Shown: piece by piece, positions 53,287-62,763 of the stretch
Position numbering within the stretch: the stretch's first letter is position 1
Layout: the number at the start of each line of letters is the position of its first letter
DNA from: Bacteroidales bacterium
GTDB taxonomy: Bacteria > Bacteroidota > Bacteroidia > Bacteroidales > UBA12077
Direction of reading: 5' to 3'
DNA length: 64,000 bases
NCBI GenBank assembly: GCA_021108325.1
Contig: JAIORB010000038.1
Location: forward strand, 17,217-81,216
Notes under the pieces: generated by a model
What the model saw: only the letters and a program-made list of their open reading frames with translations
Databases searched by the model: none
Told to the model about the DNA's origin: nothing
Translations under genes and position numbers: made by a program

Positions 53287-55410
53287 TTATAATTTTAAAC
53301 GCTCAAGCATATTAATTGCATTTGTATTTTCAGGATTTAACTGGAGCGATTTTTTGTAATTTTCTATTGCCAGTTTTGTTTCTCCATTTAACATACAAGC
53401 TTCGGCAAAACTATCATATACATTAGAGGATTCTGGGAATAATTTAACATTTAAGGAAAGTATTTGTATAGCATCAGAGAATTTTTCCTGCCGCAAATAT
53501 CTATATCCTAAAACATTTAATATCCCTTCAAGATTATTTGTGTTAGTTTTTATTTCGTCCGGGTGGTTTAATATTTCAGTAATCCCTTTTTCTATATTTC
53601 CTGCTGTAAGGAGCTCTAAAGGCAGTTTATAATCCGCATCAACTTTAATAGCTCTTTTTGTTGTGCCCAACCAATTAATATCGACATATTGAATGCTGTC
53701 ATTTAATGAGTTGAATGTAAAATTAAGAAATGGGAGTCTGGACTTAAATTTACCATCCGATTCAGGATAAAGCAATGTTTTAATTTTAAAATAATTGTCA
53801 ATATAGTCATCAATTGTACATGTTAGCTCATTATTAATTTTTTGGATATCCAGTTTAAGATATGATGAAACGGAGTATTTTCCACAGATTTTTTCAAAAG
53901 TATTATCGGATAAATTAACATTCGTTGATTGTTGGAATTTATAACTCAGAATTGAATCCATTTCAGGGTCTTTTCCTAAAAGGAAATCTTTATGCAAATA
54001 TTCTGTATAGATGTCGGGTGTTATCCATTTTCTTGTATCTTCTAAAATACTCGATTGAGTTAATCCGGTTGATATTACAACCTGAATTTTTGAATTTGGC
54101 AAGTTAATTTTTCTGGGTATTGAATAAAAATTGGGGCCTTGTGCTGTGGGTTCTCCTACAAAAATAGCATCTGTTTGTTGTTGAAGCATAGATGAAAAAA
54201 TTACAGCGGCCGAAAAGGTTTTTCTTCCAATAATTACAAAAAGTTTCCCTGGTTGATTTATTTTTTCATTTGAACTTATGAATTCTGCTAATGGAATAAC
54301 TTCAACAGCATTTCCTCCATCATTGTTTCTTACATCAACTACAAAGCGTTCAAAATCAAACTGATTTACTGTAGATTCCAGTTTTTTAATAAAATCCTCC
54401 ATTGGTTCATCATTCATTGGTATGCAACGGTTATATTGCAAGTAGAGAGTTTTATCTTCTTCACGATATTCAAACCAATAGTTTGATTTTCGGTCATTTG
54501 AAATTGCAGGTGAAAAATCATTATCGATTTTTCGCATTACAGACCAATACAAATTTGGGATATAATGAACAGGCTTACTTTCAAATGTATATTTTTCTCC
54601 TGAAGAGTTCTCAAGGGTAAACTGTGCTACTTTATCTGATTCAACTATTTTTTCGGCTTGTAACCATTCAGATATTAGGATTATTCCCACACGATTTTTT
54701 GTGTGAAATTCATTTTCGGCGCTAATATTCTTTTTTAACTTATTGTAAATTTCGATAACATCTTTACCATTTATTTTAAGAACTTTTGATCCTATAAGAT
54801 GTTTTAATCCTCGTCCTGCATCGGTTATGTAGATTCCATCATCAAAATAATAAATGTTGATTGGATAAATATGCCAGCCAAGAGTAAGAGATTGTATATT
54901 AGGGTAACTGTGCGCATCATTTGGAAGTGCTAGAATTCTTGCAAACTCAGCTTTTATTTTATTATTATCAAATTCATCAATATTTTCTTCGAATAACTTT
55001 ATTTCATTTTTAAAATATTCTTCATCAACTAAAGAATATAAATCGGGATGTGTAACTTCCATTTGATTTACGAGAAAGCTTAAGTCTTCCCTCCATTCTG
55101 TTTTAGTAGGATTTGGAGGAAATCCAAAATGTAATAATATTTTATAATTTATAATGAATACCAAAATAATAATTGTGATGATAGAAGTGAATAATAAAAG
55201 CACAAACCCTGGTATTTTTAGCCATAAGGTTGATAACCTTATCAGCTTAATATTTAGTAATACTATGGTTAAGGCGAAGCTTATAATAGTTATATAAAAA
55301 CTTAACTTGAAAATAAAACCAAATGGAATCTTAAAAAGTATTATAGTTGATGTCAGACTCAACACAAAAATTATTGAGCTTATTATCAGAAAATTTTTAG
55401 CTGTTTTCAT
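53287..55410 (-). CDS. membrane-anchored S41-peptidase-like protein with C-terminal TPR repeats
   Basis: Three to four N-terminal TMs, a central region with VRNNDGGN...IGRKTFSAAVIF (S41-like Ser motif), and C-terminal TPRs (AIENYKKSLQLNPENTNA). Confidence 0.5.
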   Translation of the reverse strand: MKTAKNFLIISSIIFVLSLTSTIILFKIPFGFIFKLSFYITIISFALTIVLLNIKLIRLSTLWLKIPGFVLLLFTSIITIIILVFIINYKILLHFGFPPNPTKTEWREDLSFLVNQMEVTHPDLYSLVDEEYFKNEIKLFEENIDEFDNNKIKAEFARILALPNDAHSYPNIQSLTLGWHIYPINIYYFDDGIYITDAGRGLKHLIGSKVLKINGKDVIEIYNKLKKNISAENEFHTKNRVGIILISEWLQAEKIVESDKVAQFTLENSSGEKYTFESKPVHYIPNLYWSVMRKIDNDFSPAISNDRKSNYWFEYREEDKTLYLQYNRCIPMNDEPMEDFIKKLESTVNQFDFERFVVDVRNNDGGNAVEVIPLAEFISSNEKINQPGKLFVIIGRKTFSAAVIFSSMLQQQTDAIFVGEPTAQGPNFYSIPRKINLPNSKIQVVISTGLTQSSILEDTRKWITPDIYTEYLHKDFLLGKDPEMDSILSYKFQQSTNVNLSDNTFEKICGKYSVSSYLKLDIQKINNELTCTIDDYIDNYFKIKTLLYPESDGKFKSRLPFLNFTFNSLNDSIQYVDINWLGTTKRAIKVDADYKLPLELLTAGNIEKGITEILNHPDEIKTNTNNLEGILNVLGYRYLRQEKFSDAIQILSLNVKLFPESSNVYDSFAEACMLNGETKLAIENYKKSLQLNPENTNAINMLERLKL

Positions 55411-55577
55411 TTTGTGTTTTTTAAATAAAAAAATATCTTTTACATAAAGTTTAGAATTGAAGCAAGTTACAAAAGAATTTTGATATTAACAGAATGATAA
55501 AGAAAGAGGTTGTTAAACGATAGTTTGATAGAAGATTGACAGAGTATAAAATAAAATGTCAAACAAAATTTTAAAAA

Positions 55578-55606
55578 TAAAAAAAGCCACTGATGAGCAG
55601 TGGCTT
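55578..55606 (-). terminator. intrinsic terminator ending the accD-accA-carboxyltransferase operon
   Basis: Minus strand reads agccactg-ctcat-cagtggct followed by ttttttt. Confidence 0.75.
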
Positions 55607-55656
55607 TAATACTAAGTTAACAATATCTGTTATCTTGGATAATAATTACGCTTAAT

Positions 55657-57594
55657 TTACAATTTTTCTACAGCCATTAATGGCTGATCTTTAGTAATTA
55701 AAGCGGCATCATCAACCAGAATCTTAATAATTTTACACTTGAACGGAGCTTCAATTTCGTTGAAAAGTTTCATAGCTTCAAGTATACAAATAGTGTCTCC
55801 CTCATTAACTTCAGACCCTTCCTTTACGAACGGAGGTTTATCTGCAGCAGAAGCATTATAGAATGTTCCTGCCATAACTGCGTTAATTGTATCCTTATAT
55901 TCCTGTGTATTTTGTTTTTCTACTTTTTCTTCAACTTCAATAACTTCTTCATGTGTTTCTGCATGGATATTTTGTTTAATTTCAGGTTCTGTAAAAACAT
56001 GTTCTTTTGTACTATCATTTCCAGATCGCATCGACATATTAAAATCACCTTTTCTGATAACTAATTCACTAAGTTGCATTTTTGAAGCTTTGTCTAAAAT
56101 AGCATTCATCCCTTCATAATCTTCCGGATGTAACATTGGATTTGCAGTACCCGAAACAGTTGATTCTACTGATATTTTCTTTTCTTTTTCAGGAGTTTTT
56201 GTAAACTCTTCTACTTCAATATCAGCAGGAGTTTTTGGTCTTTTATCTTCCGACAATGTTCTCCATTTGAAATATTCCATCGAAACATCAGGAAACAGGC
56301 AATAAGATAAAATATCTTCTTCGTTTTCAATTAATTCCGGGTTTACAGCATTTTTAGTAGCTGTAGGTAAGATTGGTTTAAGATCATCAGCAGGTCGGTG
56401 ATCAATTGGTTTTTCCTTACCCAGAATTTGCTTAATGAATTTTGGTGTGATAGGAGCAGGCGAACGGCCATACATTCCTTTCACATAATTCTTTACTTCT
56501 TGTGGAACAACCTTATATCTTTCACCTGTTAAAACATTCATTACTGCCTGAGTACCTACAATTTGACTTGTTGGAGTAACCAGGGGAGGATATCCAAGAT
56601 CTTTTCTAACTTTTGTAACTTCTTCCAATGCTTCAGGTAATTTTTCAATTGCTCCCTGTTGTTCGAGTTGTGAACGGAAATTTGAGATCATTCCACCAGG
56701 AATTTGGTGTACAAGAATCTCAGAATCGACAATTGGTTCATAACCTCGACCTTTTGTTCTAAGAGGAGTAAGATCAGCAAAATATTTATTTACTTTTCGT
56801 AATGCTTCAACATCTAAATCAACATCAAATTCAGTTTCCCGGAAAATAGAATTCATAGTTTCTACAGGTGGTTGTGACGAAAATCCTGCCATTGATGAAA
56901 TAGCACAATCAATAGCTCCGGCACCGGCTTTAACTCCTTCAAGATATGCAGTCTCGGCCATTCCGCTTGTTGCATGACAATGAATCTGAATTGGAATATC
57001 CAGTTCTTTCTTTAGCGCAGACATAAGATTTTTTGACATGGTTGGAGATAATAACCCGGCCATATCTTTTATACAAAGCGAATCAATTCCCATCTGAACT
57101 TGTTCCTTTGCATCACTTACATATTTTTCAATTGTATGCACAGGACTTATAGTATAAGAAAGTGATCCCTGGGCATGAGCCCCGTGTTTTTTTACAGATT
57201 TAATAGCTGCTTCTAAATTTCTGGAATCATTTAATGCATCGAAAATTCTGAATATATCAATCCCGTTTTCATGTGCTGTTTCAACAAAGCGATCAACCAA
57301 ATCGTCAGGATAGTTTTTATAACCAACAATGTTCTGACCCCTTAACAACATCTGTAAAGGAGTTTTTTTAGCCTTTGATTTTATTAGCCTGATTCTTTCC
57401 CATGGATTCTCGCGTAAAAACCTTAAACACACATCGAAAGTTGCTCCGCCCCAAACTTCCAGCGAATAATAACCAACAGTGTCAATAACATCAATTATAT
57501 CAATAATATCTTTGGTTCTCATTCTGGTAGCCCAAAGTGACTGATGTCCGTCTCTTAAGGTAGTATCGGTAATTCTTAATTTGTTCTGTTTCAT
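55657..57594 (-). CDS. 5S-type (pyruvate/oxaloacetate) carboxyltransferase fused to an AccB-like biotin carboxyl carrier domain (OadA/PycB-like)
   Basis: RITDTTLRDGHQS with a TIM-barrel carboxyltransferase and PYC_OADA region. A long acidic linker and an AccB-like segment LSELVIRKGDFNMSMR follow, then the biotinyl motif ILEAMKLFNEIEA. Start trimmed to ATG 57594 (MKQNKLRITD), 13 nt after the accA stop. Confidence 0.8.
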   Translation of the reverse strand: MKQNKLRITDTTLRDGHQSLWATRMRTKDIIDIIDVIDTVGYYSLEVWGGATFDVCLRFLRENPWERIRLIKSKAKKTPLQMLLRGQNIVGYKNYPDDLVDRFVETAHENGIDIFRIFDALNDSRNLEAAIKSVKKHGAHAQGSLSYTISPVHTIEKYVSDAKEQVQMGIDSLCIKDMAGLLSPTMSKNLMSALKKELDIPIQIHCHATSGMAETAYLEGVKAGAGAIDCAISSMAGFSSQPPVETMNSIFRETEFDVDLDVEALRKVNKYFADLTPLRTKGRGYEPIVDSEILVHQIPGGMISNFRSQLEQQGAIEKLPEALEEVTKVRKDLGYPPLVTPTSQIVGTQAVMNVLTGERYKVVPQEVKNYVKGMYGRSPAPITPKFIKQILGKEKPIDHRPADDLKPILPTATKNAVNPELIENEEDILSYCLFPDVSMEYFKWRTLSEDKRPKTPADIEVEEFTKTPEKEKKISVESTVSGTANPMLHPEDYEGMNAILDKASKMQLSELVIRKGDFNMSMRSGNDSTKEHVFTEPEIKQNIHAETHEEVIEVEEKVEKQNTQEYKDTINAVMAGTFYNASAADKPPFVKEGSEVNEGDTICILEAMKLFNEIEAPFKCKIIKILVDDAALITKDQPLMAVEKL

Positions 57595-57607
57595 AATATT
57601 ATCTCTA

Positions 57608-58441
57608 TTATTTATTAACTGAGAATTTTCCCATTCCGGAATATTTTTCAAATCTGCTTTGAATTAATTCTTCAATGCTTAGTTTTTTTAATATTTCAAG
57701 ATTTTTTAATACAGATTTTTTTGCTGATTCAGCAATTGCTTTATAGTTTGTGTGGGCGCCTTCGCCTGGTTCACTAATTATTTCATCAATAACTCCGTGT
57801 CTAAGAAGATCGCTGGCTGTAAGATTTAAAGCATTAGCAGCATCTGGAGCATATTTAGCATCCCTCCAAAGAATCGAAGCACAACCTTCAGGTGATATAA
57901 CCGAATATATGGCATTTGACAACATCAATATTTTATCGCCAACACCAATTCCAAGAGCACCACCACTACCTCCTTCACCTATTACAACCGAAATTATCGG
58001 CACTTCAATTGAAGCCATTTCAGTAAGATTTTTTGCTATAGCTTCTGCCTGACCTCTTTCTTCAGCCTCAAGACCGGGAAATGCTCCGGGTGTATCAATA
58101 ATAGTTACAATTGGCACATTAAATCTTTCAGCTAACTTCATTAATCTGAGAGCTTTTCTATAACCATCAGGTTTAGCCATACCAAAATTTCTTTCAAGAT
58201 TTTCATTGACCTTTTTCCCTTTATTATGGCCAATTAGCATTACTTTTTGACCTCCTATTTCGGCAAAACCACCTATCATAGCTTTATCGTCGGAATAATA
58301 TCTGTCGCCATGAAATTCCACAAAGTTTTTTACTATTAACGAAAGATAATTTTGTAGAATAGGCCTTTTAGGATGCCGGCTTATACTTACAATTTCCCAG
58401 GCCGACAATGCTGGTTTTTTGGTTTTTTTCTTATCAGTCAT
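57608..58441 (-). CDS. accA: acetyl-CoA carboxylase carboxyltransferase alpha-type subunit (short N-terminus)
   Basis: ISRHPKRP, IGHNKGK, RNFGMAKPDGYRKALRLMKLAERF, DTPGAFPG and VIGEGGSGGALG. It lacks about 40 N-terminal residues relative to E. coli AccA. Confidence 0.85.
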   Translation of the reverse strand: MTDKKKTKKPALSAWEIVSISRHPKRPILQNYLSLIVKNFVEFHGDRYYSDDKAMIGGFAEIGGQKVMLIGHNKGKKVNENLERNFGMAKPDGYRKALRLMKLAERFNVPIVTIIDTPGAFPGLEAEERGQAEAIAKNLTEMASIEVPIISVVIGEGGSGGALGIGVGDKILMLSNAIYSVISPEGCASILWRDAKYAPDAANALNLTASDLLRHGVIDEIISEPGEGAHTNYKAIAESAKKSVLKNLEILKKLSIEELIQSRFEKYSGMGKFSVNK

Positions 58442-58492
58442 TTTTTTCTTCTAATAATTTAGTTCTTAATTGAAGAAAGATTTTAAATTTGA

Positions 58493-59320
58493 TTACCTGT
58501 TATAAAAGCTAAGGACATTACTTAAATAATCTTTCATATCCTTTCTGTTAACAATGGAATCAATAAATCCATGTTCAAGAAGATATTCTGAAGTCTGAAA
58601 ATCATCAGGAAGTTTTTCCCCGATTGTTTGTTCAATTACCCTTCGGCCTGCAAATGCAATTAAAGCTCCAGGCTCGGAAATATTTAAATCGCCTACCATG
58701 GCATAACTTGCCGAAACACCTCCGGTAGTTGGATTAATAAGAACAGAAATGTAAGGAATGTTTTTTTTGTTCAACCGTGCAACCCCGGCGCATGTTTTAG
58801 CCATTTGCATAAGTGAAAGTATTCCCTCCTGCATTCTGGCGCCTCCCGATGCAGAAAAAACAATATAAGGTAAATTATTATCGTAGGCATAATTTGCAGC
58901 CTGTAGTATTTTTTCGCCTGTACCGCTTCCCAGGCTTCCACCAAGAAATCTGAAGTCCATTACTGCAACAACAGCATTAAAACCATTAATTTTACCCCGA
59001 CCTGTTACTACAGCTTCTGAAATACCTGTTTTTTTAATGGCAAGTTCATATTTATCCTTATAACTACCTTTTAGGTCATTAAATTTAAGTGAATCTTTCG
59101 GGCTAATATTGTTGAATAGCTCTTCGAAAGTGTTTTTATCAAATAAAAGATTTATCCGTTCATGCGAGGTAATACTACCGTGGTAGTTACAATTCGGGCA
59201 AACATTCAGATTTTCTTCCCATTCACTTTTGTAAATATGTGAATGGCATTCTTTACACTTAACCCACAAATCCTTTTTTGATTTCTTTTTTGCAGTTGTA
59301 GTTTCGCTATACCATGCCAT
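58493..59320 (-). CDS. accD: acetyl-CoA carboxylase carboxyltransferase beta-type subunit
   Basis: Zn ribbon CKEC...CPNC and the GGSLGSGTGEK, SGGARMQEG motifs. Confidence 0.85.
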   Translation of the reverse strand: MAWYSETTTAKKKSKKDLWVKCKECHSHIYKSEWEENLNVCPNCNYHGSITSHERINLLFDKNTFEELFNNISPKDSLKFNDLKGSYKDKYELAIKKTGISEAVVTGRGKINGFNAVVAVMDFRFLGGSLGSGTGEKILQAANYAYDNNLPYIVFSASGGARMQEGILSLMQMAKTCAGVARLNKKNIPYISVLINPTTGGVSASYAMVGDLNISEPGALIAFAGRRVIEQTIGEKLPDDFQTSEYLLEHGFIDSIVNRKDMKDYLSNVLSFYNR

Positions 59321-59833
59321 CTATCTATTCTCCGCTATTTATGTTTCTAATTCTAATGTAAAATTTTTCAATACTGTGTTATGTTCAAACAAATTATTGA
59401 AATAATTAGCTCGGCAAAGTAGTTATTTTTATAAAAAAAAGCTAGATAAATTGTAATTATTATGACTTATAAATAATCAAAAAGCAAGACTGAAACAGCA
59501 TAAAAGATCGGTATGTCAGTAATTTATGTTGTTATGTAAAGTTCATTATATTATGGAGGCTCCATGTCTGAATATTGAATTAAAAAAAGACTCCTAGTTT
59601 TCTAGAAGTCTTTTAAAGCCTGTGGCCTCAATGATGACTATTACCAGAATTTCCACCAAAACACAGACAAACATTAAAAACGATATAAATTAATGTTTGT
59701 CGCGTATTTAAGAATTAATTTTAAGGTCAGGATTTCCGCAAACATTATTTTTAAAACTTTTTAATGTTTGTTGGATAAAAAATTGTACTTTTAAGGTCAG
59801 AATTTGAGTAAACATTAAAAATTAGATTAATTA

Positions 59834-60964
59834 ATGCGTGAGCTGCTTTATCCAATCAATCCTGACAGAAATGTTCCATGGAATGATATTCCTTCGTTAC
59901 CCATTAGAAAGGAACTTTATCAAACAACAGAAATATTGGGGAAGCTTGGAGATGCAAAGGCAGCTTTAGCAAGACTTCACGGTCGTAGTGCCATAATTCC
60001 AAATCAGGGACTATTGATTAATACAATAAGCTTACAGGAAGCAAAGATTTCTAGTGCGATTGAGAACATATTCACAACTGATGATGAGCTATATAAAGAA
60101 TATAGCGATCAAAATATCGAAACAACCGGAGCATCCAAAGAGGTATTAAGATATCGGGAAGCACTTTGGTCTGGCTACAACTATTTACAAAAAACAGGAC
60201 AATTTGATCAAAACTACTTTTTACAGGTATTTCAGGAAATAAAACAAACAAGGGATGGAATTCGCCCCGACTTTTTAAATACAACAATTAAACAAGGAGG
60301 TTCAGGACCAAATGCAGGGCAGGTTATCTATACTCCTCCTAGAGGAGTTACCGTAATTAAAGACAAACTAGACAATCTTGTAGATTTCTTGAATGATGAT
60401 GAACAGTATAGAATAGATCATTTACTAAAAATGGCAATTGCTCATTTTCAGTTTGAGGCTATTCATCCTTTCCGTGATGGAAATGGCAGGTTAGGACGTA
60501 TATTCAATATCCATTATTTGACGAACAAAGGACTACTGGATGTTCCAATATTGTTCCTCAGTCGATACATTTTGGATCATAAGGATGATTATTACACTGG
60601 ATTAATGGGTGTCTCTCAAAGAGGTAACTGGAAGGACTGGTTATTATTTATGATGAGAGCCATTGAAACCACTTCGAATATTACGTTCCATAAGATTAAT
60701 GAAATTGTGTCTATAAAAGATTCAATTCTAGAATTTGTAAAGAAAGATGAACGAAAATTTCGTAATCAGGAAGGTCTTATTGAGTTCTTATTTTCTCAAC
60801 CGTTTACAAAGGTAAAACACTTGGTTGATTCAGGAATTTATGCAGAAAATACAGCGAGAAATTATCTAAATAAGTTATGTGATATGCAGGTGTTGGAGAA
60901 GAAAGAAATGGAGGGACATCATTACTATCTAAATCTTGAATTGTACAGGATACTTTCAGAATAA
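59834..60964 (+). CDS. Fic-family protein (AMPylase-type toxin fold) with intramolecular inhibitory motif
   Basis: Active-site HPFRDGNGRLGR (HxFx[DE]GNGRxxR), N-terminal inhibitory motif SSAIEN ([ST]xxxE[GN]) and a C-terminal wHTH-like region. Confidence 0.85.
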   Translation: MRELLYPINPDRNVPWNDIPSLPIRKELYQTTEILGKLGDAKAALARLHGRSAIIPNQGLLINTISLQEAKISSAIENIFTTDDELYKEYSDQNIETTGASKEVLRYREALWSGYNYLQKTGQFDQNYFLQVFQEIKQTRDGIRPDFLNTTIKQGGSGPNAGQVIYTPPRGVTVIKDKLDNLVDFLNDDEQYRIDHLLKMAIAHFQFEAIHPFRDGNGRLGRIFNIHYLTNKGLLDVPILFLSRYILDHKDDYYTGLMGVSQRGNWKDWLLFMMRAIETTSNITFHKINEIVSIKDSILEFVKKDERKFRNQEGLIEFLFSQPFTKVKHLVDSGIYAENTARNYLNKLCDMQVLEKKEMEGHHYYLNLELYRILSE

Positions 60965-61233: not shown

Positions 61234-62763
61234 TTATTTTGCAGCTTTTTTTACCAGTTCACCTAAGAATTTTGCAAAATCAGTTATATCGCCATCAACA
61301 CTTGCCTTTTCCAAAGCAGCCATATATGCATCTCGCTTTTCTACTGGAACAACTGTCCAGGAATAACCACCTGATGCAAGCATTGTATTAAAAAGAAAAC
61401 GTCCAATTCGACCATTACCATCCATGTACGGGTGAATATATACAAATATAAAGTGACCAAGAACAGCTCTTACGCAAGTCTCTTTTTCTTCTTTAAGTAA
61501 GTCAAAAAACACAGGTATTGCATCACGAACAGCTTCAGGATTTAAAGGTGTATGTTTTGAGCCTTTGATAAAGACCTGACTATTTCTGTATCCAGCAAGG
61601 TCGCTCGCTTTTACTATTCCTGCAGCAACGCTTGGTGCAAATAATTCACGATACCAGTCTCCATGGTCGTTATCAGCAACCTCGCCAGCATTTGTACCAC
61701 CAAGTATTGTTTTTATACTCTTCTTAACGGTTTGGAATGCCTGATAATATCCACGTGCTGCCATCGTGTTTTTTTCCTTTTTGTCTGCTTCACTTACTTC
61801 AGGATCCCATTTGCCATCACGTACTCTTTCAATTAATTCTGCTGTTACACGATACCCTTCAATGGATAACGAGTTATATGCATCATCCGCATAATTTTCT
61901 TCCACCTCCTTAAGATAAGCATCAATATCAATTGGCAGTACTTTGGATGGGGGAAAGTTGGTAATTGCTGTTTCACGCATTTTATACCACATTAATTTAA
62001 TGCGATTGGCATATGGAGATGTTTCTCTTGCATTTAAAATGTTTGGCAGTTTTTCTTTAAAGGGATCTGTTTCCCTTACGTCATATCCGGCAGATTTCAT
62101 GGTTTTAACAATAGTATCTGCTATTTTATCATTGCCAATATTTCTGAATGCTCCAACAAGGCGGCCTGCTACAGCACTATGACCACCTTCAAGGAGTTTC
62201 CCGAGTAGATTGGAACCATCCTTAACCATGGCAAGACATGTTCTGGCATCTGTGGCCTGACGTGTAAAAAAATCTTCTCCTATAGATATTAAGCCTGCTT
62301 CAAGAGAATAGAGGTTTGCCCCTTCTACGATTGTTCTATTCTGTTTTTCTGGTACCGAAAGGTTTGTGTCAAAAATAGATGTATTATGGGGCAAAACAAG
62401 ATTGTTATTTGATGCTTTTGATGAGCGAACTAACAATTGTTCTGGTACTGTATAATTACCAGCATGAAGCATCAGGGATTGTTCAGGAGATAAACACCAG
62501 TCATCTCTAAAACGGTTTTTGCAATATACAGAAACGAAATACCAGAAAGACATATACCATGATGTAGTATCTCCATCGGTCTCATCAGGTCTGGTTGATA
62601 TGTACCATCCCCTTACAACTTCTTTTAAAAAACCATTTCCCACAAGCCTTTCTTTTACCGTGCGTGTCATTTCGCTTGCCTGGATAACTGCAATACCTTT
62701 TTCATTTTGCATTTTTTGCAATTCTTCTAAAGCTTGTGCCAATTTTTCCTGTGGTGTCGCCAT
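61234..62763 (-). CDS. Fic-family protein, long form
   Basis: Active-site HPYMDGNGRIGR and upstream inhibitory-type motif SLSIEG. 509 aa. Confidence 0.8.
   Translation of the reverse strand: MATPQEKLAQALEELQKMQNEKGIAVIQASEMTRTVKERLVGNGFLKEVVRGWYISTRPDETDGDTTSWYMSFWYFVSVYCKNRFRDDWCLSPEQSLMLHAGNYTVPEQLLVRSSKASNNNLVLPHNTSIFDTNLSVPEKQNRTIVEGANLYSLEAGLISIGEDFFTRQATDARTCLAMVKDGSNLLGKLLEGGHSAVAGRLVGAFRNIGNDKIADTIVKTMKSAGYDVRETDPFKEKLPNILNARETSPYANRIKLMWYKMRETAITNFPPSKVLPIDIDAYLKEVEENYADDAYNSLSIEGYRVTAELIERVRDGKWDPEVSEADKKEKNTMAARGYYQAFQTVKKSIKTILGGTNAGEVADNDHGDWYRELFAPSVAAGIVKASDLAGYRNSQVFIKGSKHTPLNPEAVRDAIPVFFDLLKEEKETCVRAVLGHFIFVYIHPYMDGNGRIGRFLFNTMLASGGYSWTVVPVEKRDAYMAALEKASVDGDITDFAKFLGELVKKAAK

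Follow-up and report, generated by a model that had tools for sequence, protein, structure and literature searches.

Malonyl-CoA made by acetyl-CoA carboxylase (ACC) costs one ATP per two-carbon unit, and its formation is usually regarded as the committed step that all bacterial fatty-acid synthesis has in common. A protist enzyme that lacks biotin carboxylase (BC) is reported to reach the same product, and work cited for it includes that of Jordan et al. in 2003 and Barbosa-Cabrera et al. in 2012. Three reports (PMC8136499, PMC7985675, bioRxiv 10.1101/2024.02.02.578639) attribute the conversion of acetyl-CoA and oxaloacetate to malonyl-CoA and pyruvate to this single-chain protein, ACCT/PycB, a "(methyl)malonyl-CoA:pyruvate transcarboxylase" present in Entamoeba, Giardia, Mastigamoeba, retortamonads and Monocercomonoides. 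The Propionibacterium transcarboxylase (EC 2.1.3.1; 12S, 5S and 1.3S subunits) likewise works without BC, combining two carboxyltransferases (CTs) of different specificity with one biotin carrier. Here we describe a bacterial operon that probably shares this logic. It consists of accD, accA and a gene encoding a 5S-type carboxyltransferase fused to an AccB-type carrier (5S::AccB), and it lies in a 64,000-nucleotide stretch of a Bacteroidales genome (contig JAIORB010000038.1, positions 17,217 to 81,216; the whole stretch is hereafter the window). An earlier note on this DNA had put the operon forward as a candidate BC-independent transcarboxylase for the reaction oxaloacetate + acetyl-CoA <-> pyruvate + malonyl-CoA, and the genomic checks reported below support that candidacy. 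On the basis of comparative genomics, we think that the operon probably encodes a multi-subunit, biotin-dependent transcarboxylase needing no BC. Our reliance on this reading comes from a closed congeneric genome, the distribution of the genes within the genus, and purifying selection. The genes and domains of the operon are the following.

58493..59320, minus strand: accD, acetyl-CoA carboxyltransferase beta subunit, 275 aa, with an N-terminal Cys4 Zn ribbon (TIGR00515, PF17848)
57608..58441, minus strand: accA, acetyl-CoA carboxyltransferase alpha subunit, 277 aa, N-truncated (NF004344)
56260..57594, minus strand: 5S/PycB/OadA-type pyruvate/oxaloacetate carboxyltransferase domain, residues 1–445 of the 645-aa fusion protein (PycB, OadA and 5S matches)
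56020..56109, minus strand: AccB-type N-terminal domain of the fusion protein, residues 496–525, with variable linkers on either side (TIGR00531 coverage)
55660..55890, minus strand: AccB-type biotinyl domain with thumb, residues 569–645 of the fusion protein (gap-free alignment to 1BDO/8UXZ_B)

No BC gene is present in the window, as the earlier note had stated, and the only one in this genome (G000, 98% complete, in which the operon contig is C5) lies on another contig, C90, within an operon for CT, BC and biotin carboxyl carrier protein (BCCP). The occurrence of the two operons was compared among four genomes of the genus.

G000: accD-accA-fusion operon present, CT-BC-BCCP operon present
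G098: accD-accA-fusion operon present, CT-BC-BCCP operon absent
G211: accD-accA-fusion operon absent, CT-BC-BCCP operon present
G299: accD-accA-fusion operon absent, CT-BC-BCCP operon present

G098 is one closed contig of 4.6 Mb (99% complete) that carries an intact accD-accA-fusion operon, and Biotin_carb_C has no match anywhere in it. The top CPSase_L_D2 match in G098 is a generic 434-aa ATP-grasp protein encoded in a sugar-modification cluster, which scores 57 bits against biotin carboxylase models whose cut-offs are ∼600–740; a query of G098 with the BC protein of G000 returned nothing better. The operon in G098 therefore cannot depend on PycA or AccC, which answers for that genome the earlier note's concern that the fusion protein might pair with a PycA encoded elsewhere. 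G098 also encodes fabD and fabF, both above cut-off, several more ketosynthases, and a phosphoenolpyruvate (PEP)-carboxykinase-family gene. In total, no BC was found in 18 of the 78 genomes that carry the fusion gene (14/50 plus 4/28), sister pairs on the fusion-protein tree included. Between pairs of genomes without BC, the ratio of nonsynonymous to synonymous substitution rates (dN/dS) is 0.03–0.13 for each of the three genes; all three are under purifying selection in BC-less genomes.

The arrangement of the genes is conserved well beyond this genus. Homologs of the fusion protein with at least 71% identity number more than 120, mostly from metagenome-assembled genomes (MAGs) of Bacteroidales, and are commonly annotated as PycB ("pyruvate carboxylase subunit B") or OadA ("oxaloacetate decarboxylase alpha"). 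Synteny was scanned at 80 loci, one genome per species, over flanks of ∼4 kb; the loci come from Bacteroidales (including Marinilabiliales, Tenuifilaceae and Perlabentimonas), "Sphingobacteriia" MAGs, Victivallales, Planctomycetia and Latescibacter. The order accD-accA-fusion on one strand, which the earlier note had asked to be checked, is kept at 69 of these 80 species-level loci. At a further five, accA is present and the contig ends after it, and at two the upstream flank is too short for a judgement. The remaining four have no accDA within ∼4 kb, and their fusion proteins are 57–58% identical. These four unlinked loci (L103, L107, L109 and L110) belong to a Planctomycetia MAG, a Latescibacter genome and two unclassified MAGs, and two of the four genomes carry a full-length accA elsewhere. 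Neither a biotin carboxylase nor a separate BCCP nor OAD_beta occurs in the ∼4-kb flanks of any of the 80 loci. A Kiritimatiellia genome (G378) has an accD::accA fusion with a 5S::BCCP gene directly after it, and no biotin carboxylase was found in that genome.

The fusion protein itself gives matches to HMGL-like, PYC_OADA and Biotin_lipoyl and scores 790 bits with the PycB domain model NF006761; an ESM Atlas search returned generic PycB, OadA and BCCP cluster names only. Residues 1–445 match PycB of the Methylobacillus flagellatus PycA/PycB pyruvate carboxylase best (5KS8, 477 bits), with 464 bits to OadA of V. cholerae (2NX9) and 422 bits to the Propionibacterium 5S subunit (1RQB), whose metal ligands are kept, here as D15, K176, H205 and H207. 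These four metal and catalytic residues, together with T342, are invariant across 78 orthologs. The carrier part covers positions 8–156 of the BCCP profile TIGR00531, by residues 517–663 of the 664-aa open reading frame (ORF) beginning at TTG 57651, or 498–644 when counted from the ATG at 57594. Its biotinyl domain aligns without gaps to E. coli BCCP, thumb segment included, whereas the 1.3S subunit (1DCZ, 30.8 bits) and pyruvate-carboxylase-type carriers align to its core only. The biotinyl lysine, K609 within EAMKL (codon 55768–55770), is invariant in the 78 orthologs, and the stop codon of the gene occupies 55657–55659. Within the AccB N-terminal domain E510, I513, K515 and G516 are nearly invariant, and the domain is as conserved in BC-less genomes as elsewhere. 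Judged by these alignments, the carrier part is a complete AccB-type protein fused C-terminally to the 5S-type domain. The earlier note had described such a fusion, joined by a long acidic linker, and had named the motifs RITDTTLRDGHQS, LSELVIRKGDFNMSMR and EAMKLFNEIEA. All three motifs are found in the protein, and they and the profile matches bear out the fusion. A linker is present too, but it consists of two variable linkers around the conserved AccB N-terminal domain and is only mildly acidic (27 acidic and 17 basic residues among the 126 at positions 450–575).

AccD and AccA are both ∼60% identical to their E. coli counterparts, and the earlier description of an AccD with a Zn ribbon and an AccA lacking about 40 N-terminal residues holds for both. 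AccD scores 378 bits against TIGR00515 (cut-off 317), carries the PF17848 Zn ribbon, and aligns by residues 7–271 with residues 11–274 of the E. coli protein. AccA scores 421 bits against NF004344 (cut-off 357) in a match that starts at profile position 53, and its residues 11–269 align without gaps to residues 54–312 of E. coli AccA; ∼43 N-terminal residues are therefore absent from it. The same short form is seen in PDB 9M70 (chains A and B), a solved carboxyltransferase with an AccA chain of just 273 aa, which aligns from its residue 9.

The truncated AccA marks a lineage of its own. Among 301 Bacteroidales species from 137 families, represented by genomes at least 90% complete, N-truncated AccA occurs in exactly four (G000, G098, G029 and G159). 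These are also the four in which the fusion protein has a full-length ortholog, whose gene adjoins accA in every case. Full-length AccA occurs in ∼25 of the 301 genomes, and the AccC-type biotin carboxylases of ∼450 aa (445–465 aa), among those listed, are almost all found in genomes with full-length AccA. On an AccA tree the 5S-linked proteins, comprising the split Bacteroidales form, the Victivallales form and the fused Kiritimatiellia form, form one group (SH-aLRT 93), distinct from both the clade of classical Bacteroidales AccA (SH-aLRT 100) and the accB-accC-linked form of Cloacimonadota. By its distribution and this phylogeny, the 5S-linked AccA is a dedicated carboxyltransferase lineage. 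Proteins of ∼630 aa, encoded at L123, L124 and L125 (genomes G227, G114 and G021) and in 10 more Bacteroidales genomes, have an AccA-like N-terminal part of 290 residues (33% identical to the window AccA), followed by ∼330 further residues.

In the reaction that this composition suggests, the 5S-type domain would take a carboxyl group from oxaloacetate, release pyruvate, and load the group onto the biotin of the AccB-type carrier at the C terminus of the same protein. The flexible linkers would allow the carboxybiotin to reach AccD/AccA by swinging, and this carboxyltransferase would hand the carboxyl group to acetyl-CoA; the malonyl-CoA formed would go to type II fatty-acid synthases and related ones. 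Neither ATP nor bicarbonate would be consumed. Oxaloacetate could be supplied by ATP-forming PEP carboxykinase, in which case a malonyl-CoA would cost one ATP less than by acetyl-CoA carboxylase. The substrates are those expected from family membership, the subunit assembly and the direction of flux are likewise inferred, and the reaction should be freely reversible.

The protist ACCT/PycB resembles this system in its predicted chemistry, in combining an acyl-CoA CT, a PycB-type CT and one biotin carrier with no BC, and in its setting in anaerobes that need malonyl-CoA. By its published description, which is the basis of the comparison, it differs in being one polypeptide, against three genes here and two in Kiritimatiellia. 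No prokaryotic single-chain CT-5S-BCCP protein was found among longer homologs, and no link to the protist enzyme emerged: those of the fusion protein were ordinary pyruvate carboxylases only, those of AccA were only accD::accA fusions of 486–917 aa, and in an AccA scan of 1.84 billion representatives none of the best 150 exceeded 914 aa. We lean, by a small margin of confidence, toward the broader proposal that AccD/AccA and 5S::AccB form an acetyl-CoA:oxaloacetate transcarboxylase that can replace the BC half of ACC in anaerobic Bacteroidales and bacteria of the Planctomycetes-Verrucomicrobia-Chlamydiae (PVC) group, and that may be the prokaryotic source of protist ACCT/PycB. The multi-subunit bacterial form would be new, although the kind of enzyme is already known from the fused protist protein; we found no description of a split accDA-5S::AccB form from bacteria in the literature.

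The Propionibacterium enzyme, for all the likeness of its 5S subunit, differs on both sides of the carrier. Its CoA-side CT is the 12S hexamer subunit of ∼520 aa, whereas here that CT is split into AccD and AccA and is of the acetyl-CoA/malonyl-CoA type; the 12S-type model TIGR01117 gives only 73 and 51 bits for the linked AccD/AccA transferase, far under its cut-off. Its 1.3S carrier is free and without a thumb, unlike the thumb-bearing AccB fused to the 5S domain here. AccD and AccA and the carrier of AccB type all have clear homologs in bacterial ACC (AccA/B/C/D), with scores that reach or approach equivalog level. The operon differs from ACC in having no AccC partner (none in G098, and in G000 only a BC of the acyl-CoA-carboxylase type), in the fusion of AccB to a second CT in place of a free-standing carrier, and in the shorter AccA. 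Membership in classical ACC was ruled out for want of an AccC and a free AccB. Membership in PycA/PycB pyruvate carboxylase was ruled out by the carrier type, the PycB carrier scoring only 14.6 bits against the AccB-type carrier here; PycA is linked at 0 of 80 loci and is absent from G098.

The genome of the window holds five sets of genes for biotin enzymes.

Contig C90: CT (518 aa), BC (502 aa) and BCCP (177 aa), likely an acyl-CoA carboxylase; the only biotin carboxylase of the genome
Contig C19: epimerase-mmdA-delta-mmdC-mmdB, likely a Na+ methylmalonyl-CoA decarboxylase; the only OAD_beta of the genome
Contig C8, 30200–32126: 12S-type CT (515 aa) and BCCP (132 aa)
Contig C55, 5180–6925: diverged 5S-like::BCCP protein (581 aa), adjoining pyruvate:ferredoxin oxidoreductase
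Contig C5 (the window): accD-accA-5S::AccB; the sole accA/accD genes of the genome

The earlier note had raised the case of a sole accA/accD pair served by a separate accBC operon. The pair in the window is indeed the only one, but no accBC operon, nor any classical accB-accC pair, was found in the genome, and its only BC, of 502 aa, is of the acyl-CoA-carboxylase type; the genome has no AccC-type protein of ∼450 aa. The C8 and C55 genes are kept in all four species of the genus, and their products together may constitute a classical methylmalonyl-CoA:pyruvate transcarboxylase.

Several observations weigh against a BC-independent enzyme. G000 and 60 of the 78 genomes with the fusion gene encode some biotin carboxylase, and in G000 the C90 protein might, in principle, load the fused AccB domain in trans. 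Carriers of the fusion gene do not lack BC more often than Bacteroidales at large (18/78, against 104 of the 301 Bacteroidales, or 35%), so that an argument from enriched BC loss, tried on the 14/50 and 4/28 counts, was dropped. Moreover, 103 of those 104 BC-less Bacteroidales also lack true AccA/AccD and the operon, and the order must therefore have another source of malonyl-CoA; a 12S-type CT with a small BCCP and a 5S-like protein is one possibility for such a route in genomes with neither operon nor BC. A control with Bacteroides thetaiotaomicron gave no AccA at E<=1e-30. Except for G098, the BC-less carriers are MAGs whose completeness is unknown, BC loss is scattered over the fusion-protein tree (7–10 changes, with no single BC-less clade), and some of the apparent losses may reflect incomplete MAGs. 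Finally, the carrier is of the AccB type, and in E. coli the N-terminal domain of AccB helps to bind AccC. A rival explanation sees the operon as an ACC in which a PycB module has been added to AccB: a BC encoded elsewhere, here the C90 protein, would charge the fused AccB, which would then serve both AccD/AccA, giving ACC activity, and the 5S domain, giving pyruvate carboxylase activity. Such a hybrid ATP-dependent carboxylase would suit a carrier that retains the thumb and N-terminal domain of the type that works with AccC, as well as the operon's status as the sole source of AccA and AccD. We nevertheless consider it unlikely. No BC shows up in the closed G098 or in at least 17 further carriers of the fusion gene, yet they keep this gene, with accD and accA where linked, under the selection described above, with an AccB N-terminal domain conserved equally well. 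The BC of G000 belongs to a complete CT-BC-BCCP operon of its own, genomes with the accD-accA-fusion operon lack the ∼450-aa AccC type that goes with full-length AccA, and a BC is linked to the fusion gene at none of the 80 loci.

The same genes might instead form a Na+-pumping decarboxylase, in which the fusion protein takes the part of an OadA-like alpha subunit and passes carboxybiotin to a membrane beta subunit (the OAD_beta protein of C19); the substrate would be oxaloacetate, or malonyl-CoA by way of AccD/AccA as in the Malonomonas malonate decarboxylase. The match to V. cholerae OadA, a score of 701 bits with the oadA model TIGR01108, the frequent labelling of homologs as "oxaloacetate decarboxylase alpha subunit" by sources, and the presence of one Na+-pump beta subunit in the genome all speak for this. 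However, 701 bits falls below the TIGR01108 cut-off of 756, genes for beta, gamma or delta subunits occur near the operon at none of the 80 loci, and the sole beta subunit is embedded in the complete epimerase-mmdA-delta-mmdC-mmdB operon. The strict linkage to an acetyl-CoA-type CT and the AccB-type carrier are, in addition, foreign to known OadA proteins. We regard a decarboxylase as highly improbable; membership in OadABG was ruled out on the model score and the lack of beta and gamma genes, and the Na+-pump reading was rejected on the lack of a beta subunit near any of the loci. A transcarboxylase might also run mainly in the opposite direction, from malonyl-CoA and pyruvate to acetyl-CoA and oxaloacetate, in anaplerosis or in the catabolism of malonate or malonyl-CoA. 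Sequence fixes no direction, and carboxyl transfer between two beta-keto-acid/thioester donors is expected to lie near equilibrium, as in methylmalonyl-CoA:pyruvate transcarboxylase. Against this, neither the window nor the related loci examined show genes for malonate uptake or activation linked to the operon, G098 needs malonyl-CoA for fabD and fabF and has no BC, and oxaloacetate is already supplied by PEP carboxykinase, so that we hold a physiological role in this direction to be quite improbable.

A BC-independent transcarboxylase fed by PEP carboxykinase, if real, would remove the ATP cost of malonyl-CoA, which would be relevant to anaerobes short of energy, such as those of sediments, soda lakes and guts, and would account for a closed genome that has a full type II fatty-acid synthase yet no biotin carboxylase. 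It would provide a prokaryotic counterpart, possibly the origin, of an odd protist enzyme, and a compact, three-gene, ATP-free malonyl-CoA module for the production of polyketides, fatty acids or 3-hydroxypropionate. For annotation, it would bear on the pyruvate carboxylase and oxaloacetate decarboxylase names now given to the fusion proteins.

The accD, accA and fusion genes are one transcription unit on the minus strand. The three same-direction ORFs span 58493–59320, 57608–58441 and 55657–57651, and the third most likely starts at ATG 57594, giving a protein of 645 aa whose length and full coverage match more than 100 homologs. With this start the spacers are 51 nt and 13 nt, exactly as the earlier note had given them for the co-directional trio. 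Terminator-like hairpins lie on both flanks.

59585..59614, minus strand: terminator-like hairpin upstream of accD, with a 13-pair stem followed by a T-run
55573..55607, minus strand: intrinsic-terminator-like hairpin and T-run at the operon end, with a 10-pair stem including 5 G-C pairs and the tail TTTTATTTTT

The upstream hairpin closes off transcription from that side, so that the operon promoter must sit between 59585 and 59321; with both hairpins, the three genes form a self-contained unit. The terminator that the earlier note had placed at 55578–55606 thus exists downstream of the fusion gene, as a hairpin at 55607–55583 followed by a T-run. The neighbours on both sides are unrelated to the operon. 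Downstream, a gene for a 707-aa S41-peptidase/TPR protein (53287–55410 of the window, minus strand) lies between the operon and a PstS-like gene; in G098 a PstS-type gene (PBP_like_2) directly follows the operon. Upstream are two genes for Fic-domain proteins, at 59834–60964 (plus strand) and 61234–62763 (minus strand), of which one encodes a SoFic-like protein that has Fic_N and ends in a SoFic C-terminal domain, and the other a 509-aa protein whose Fic domain is C-terminal.

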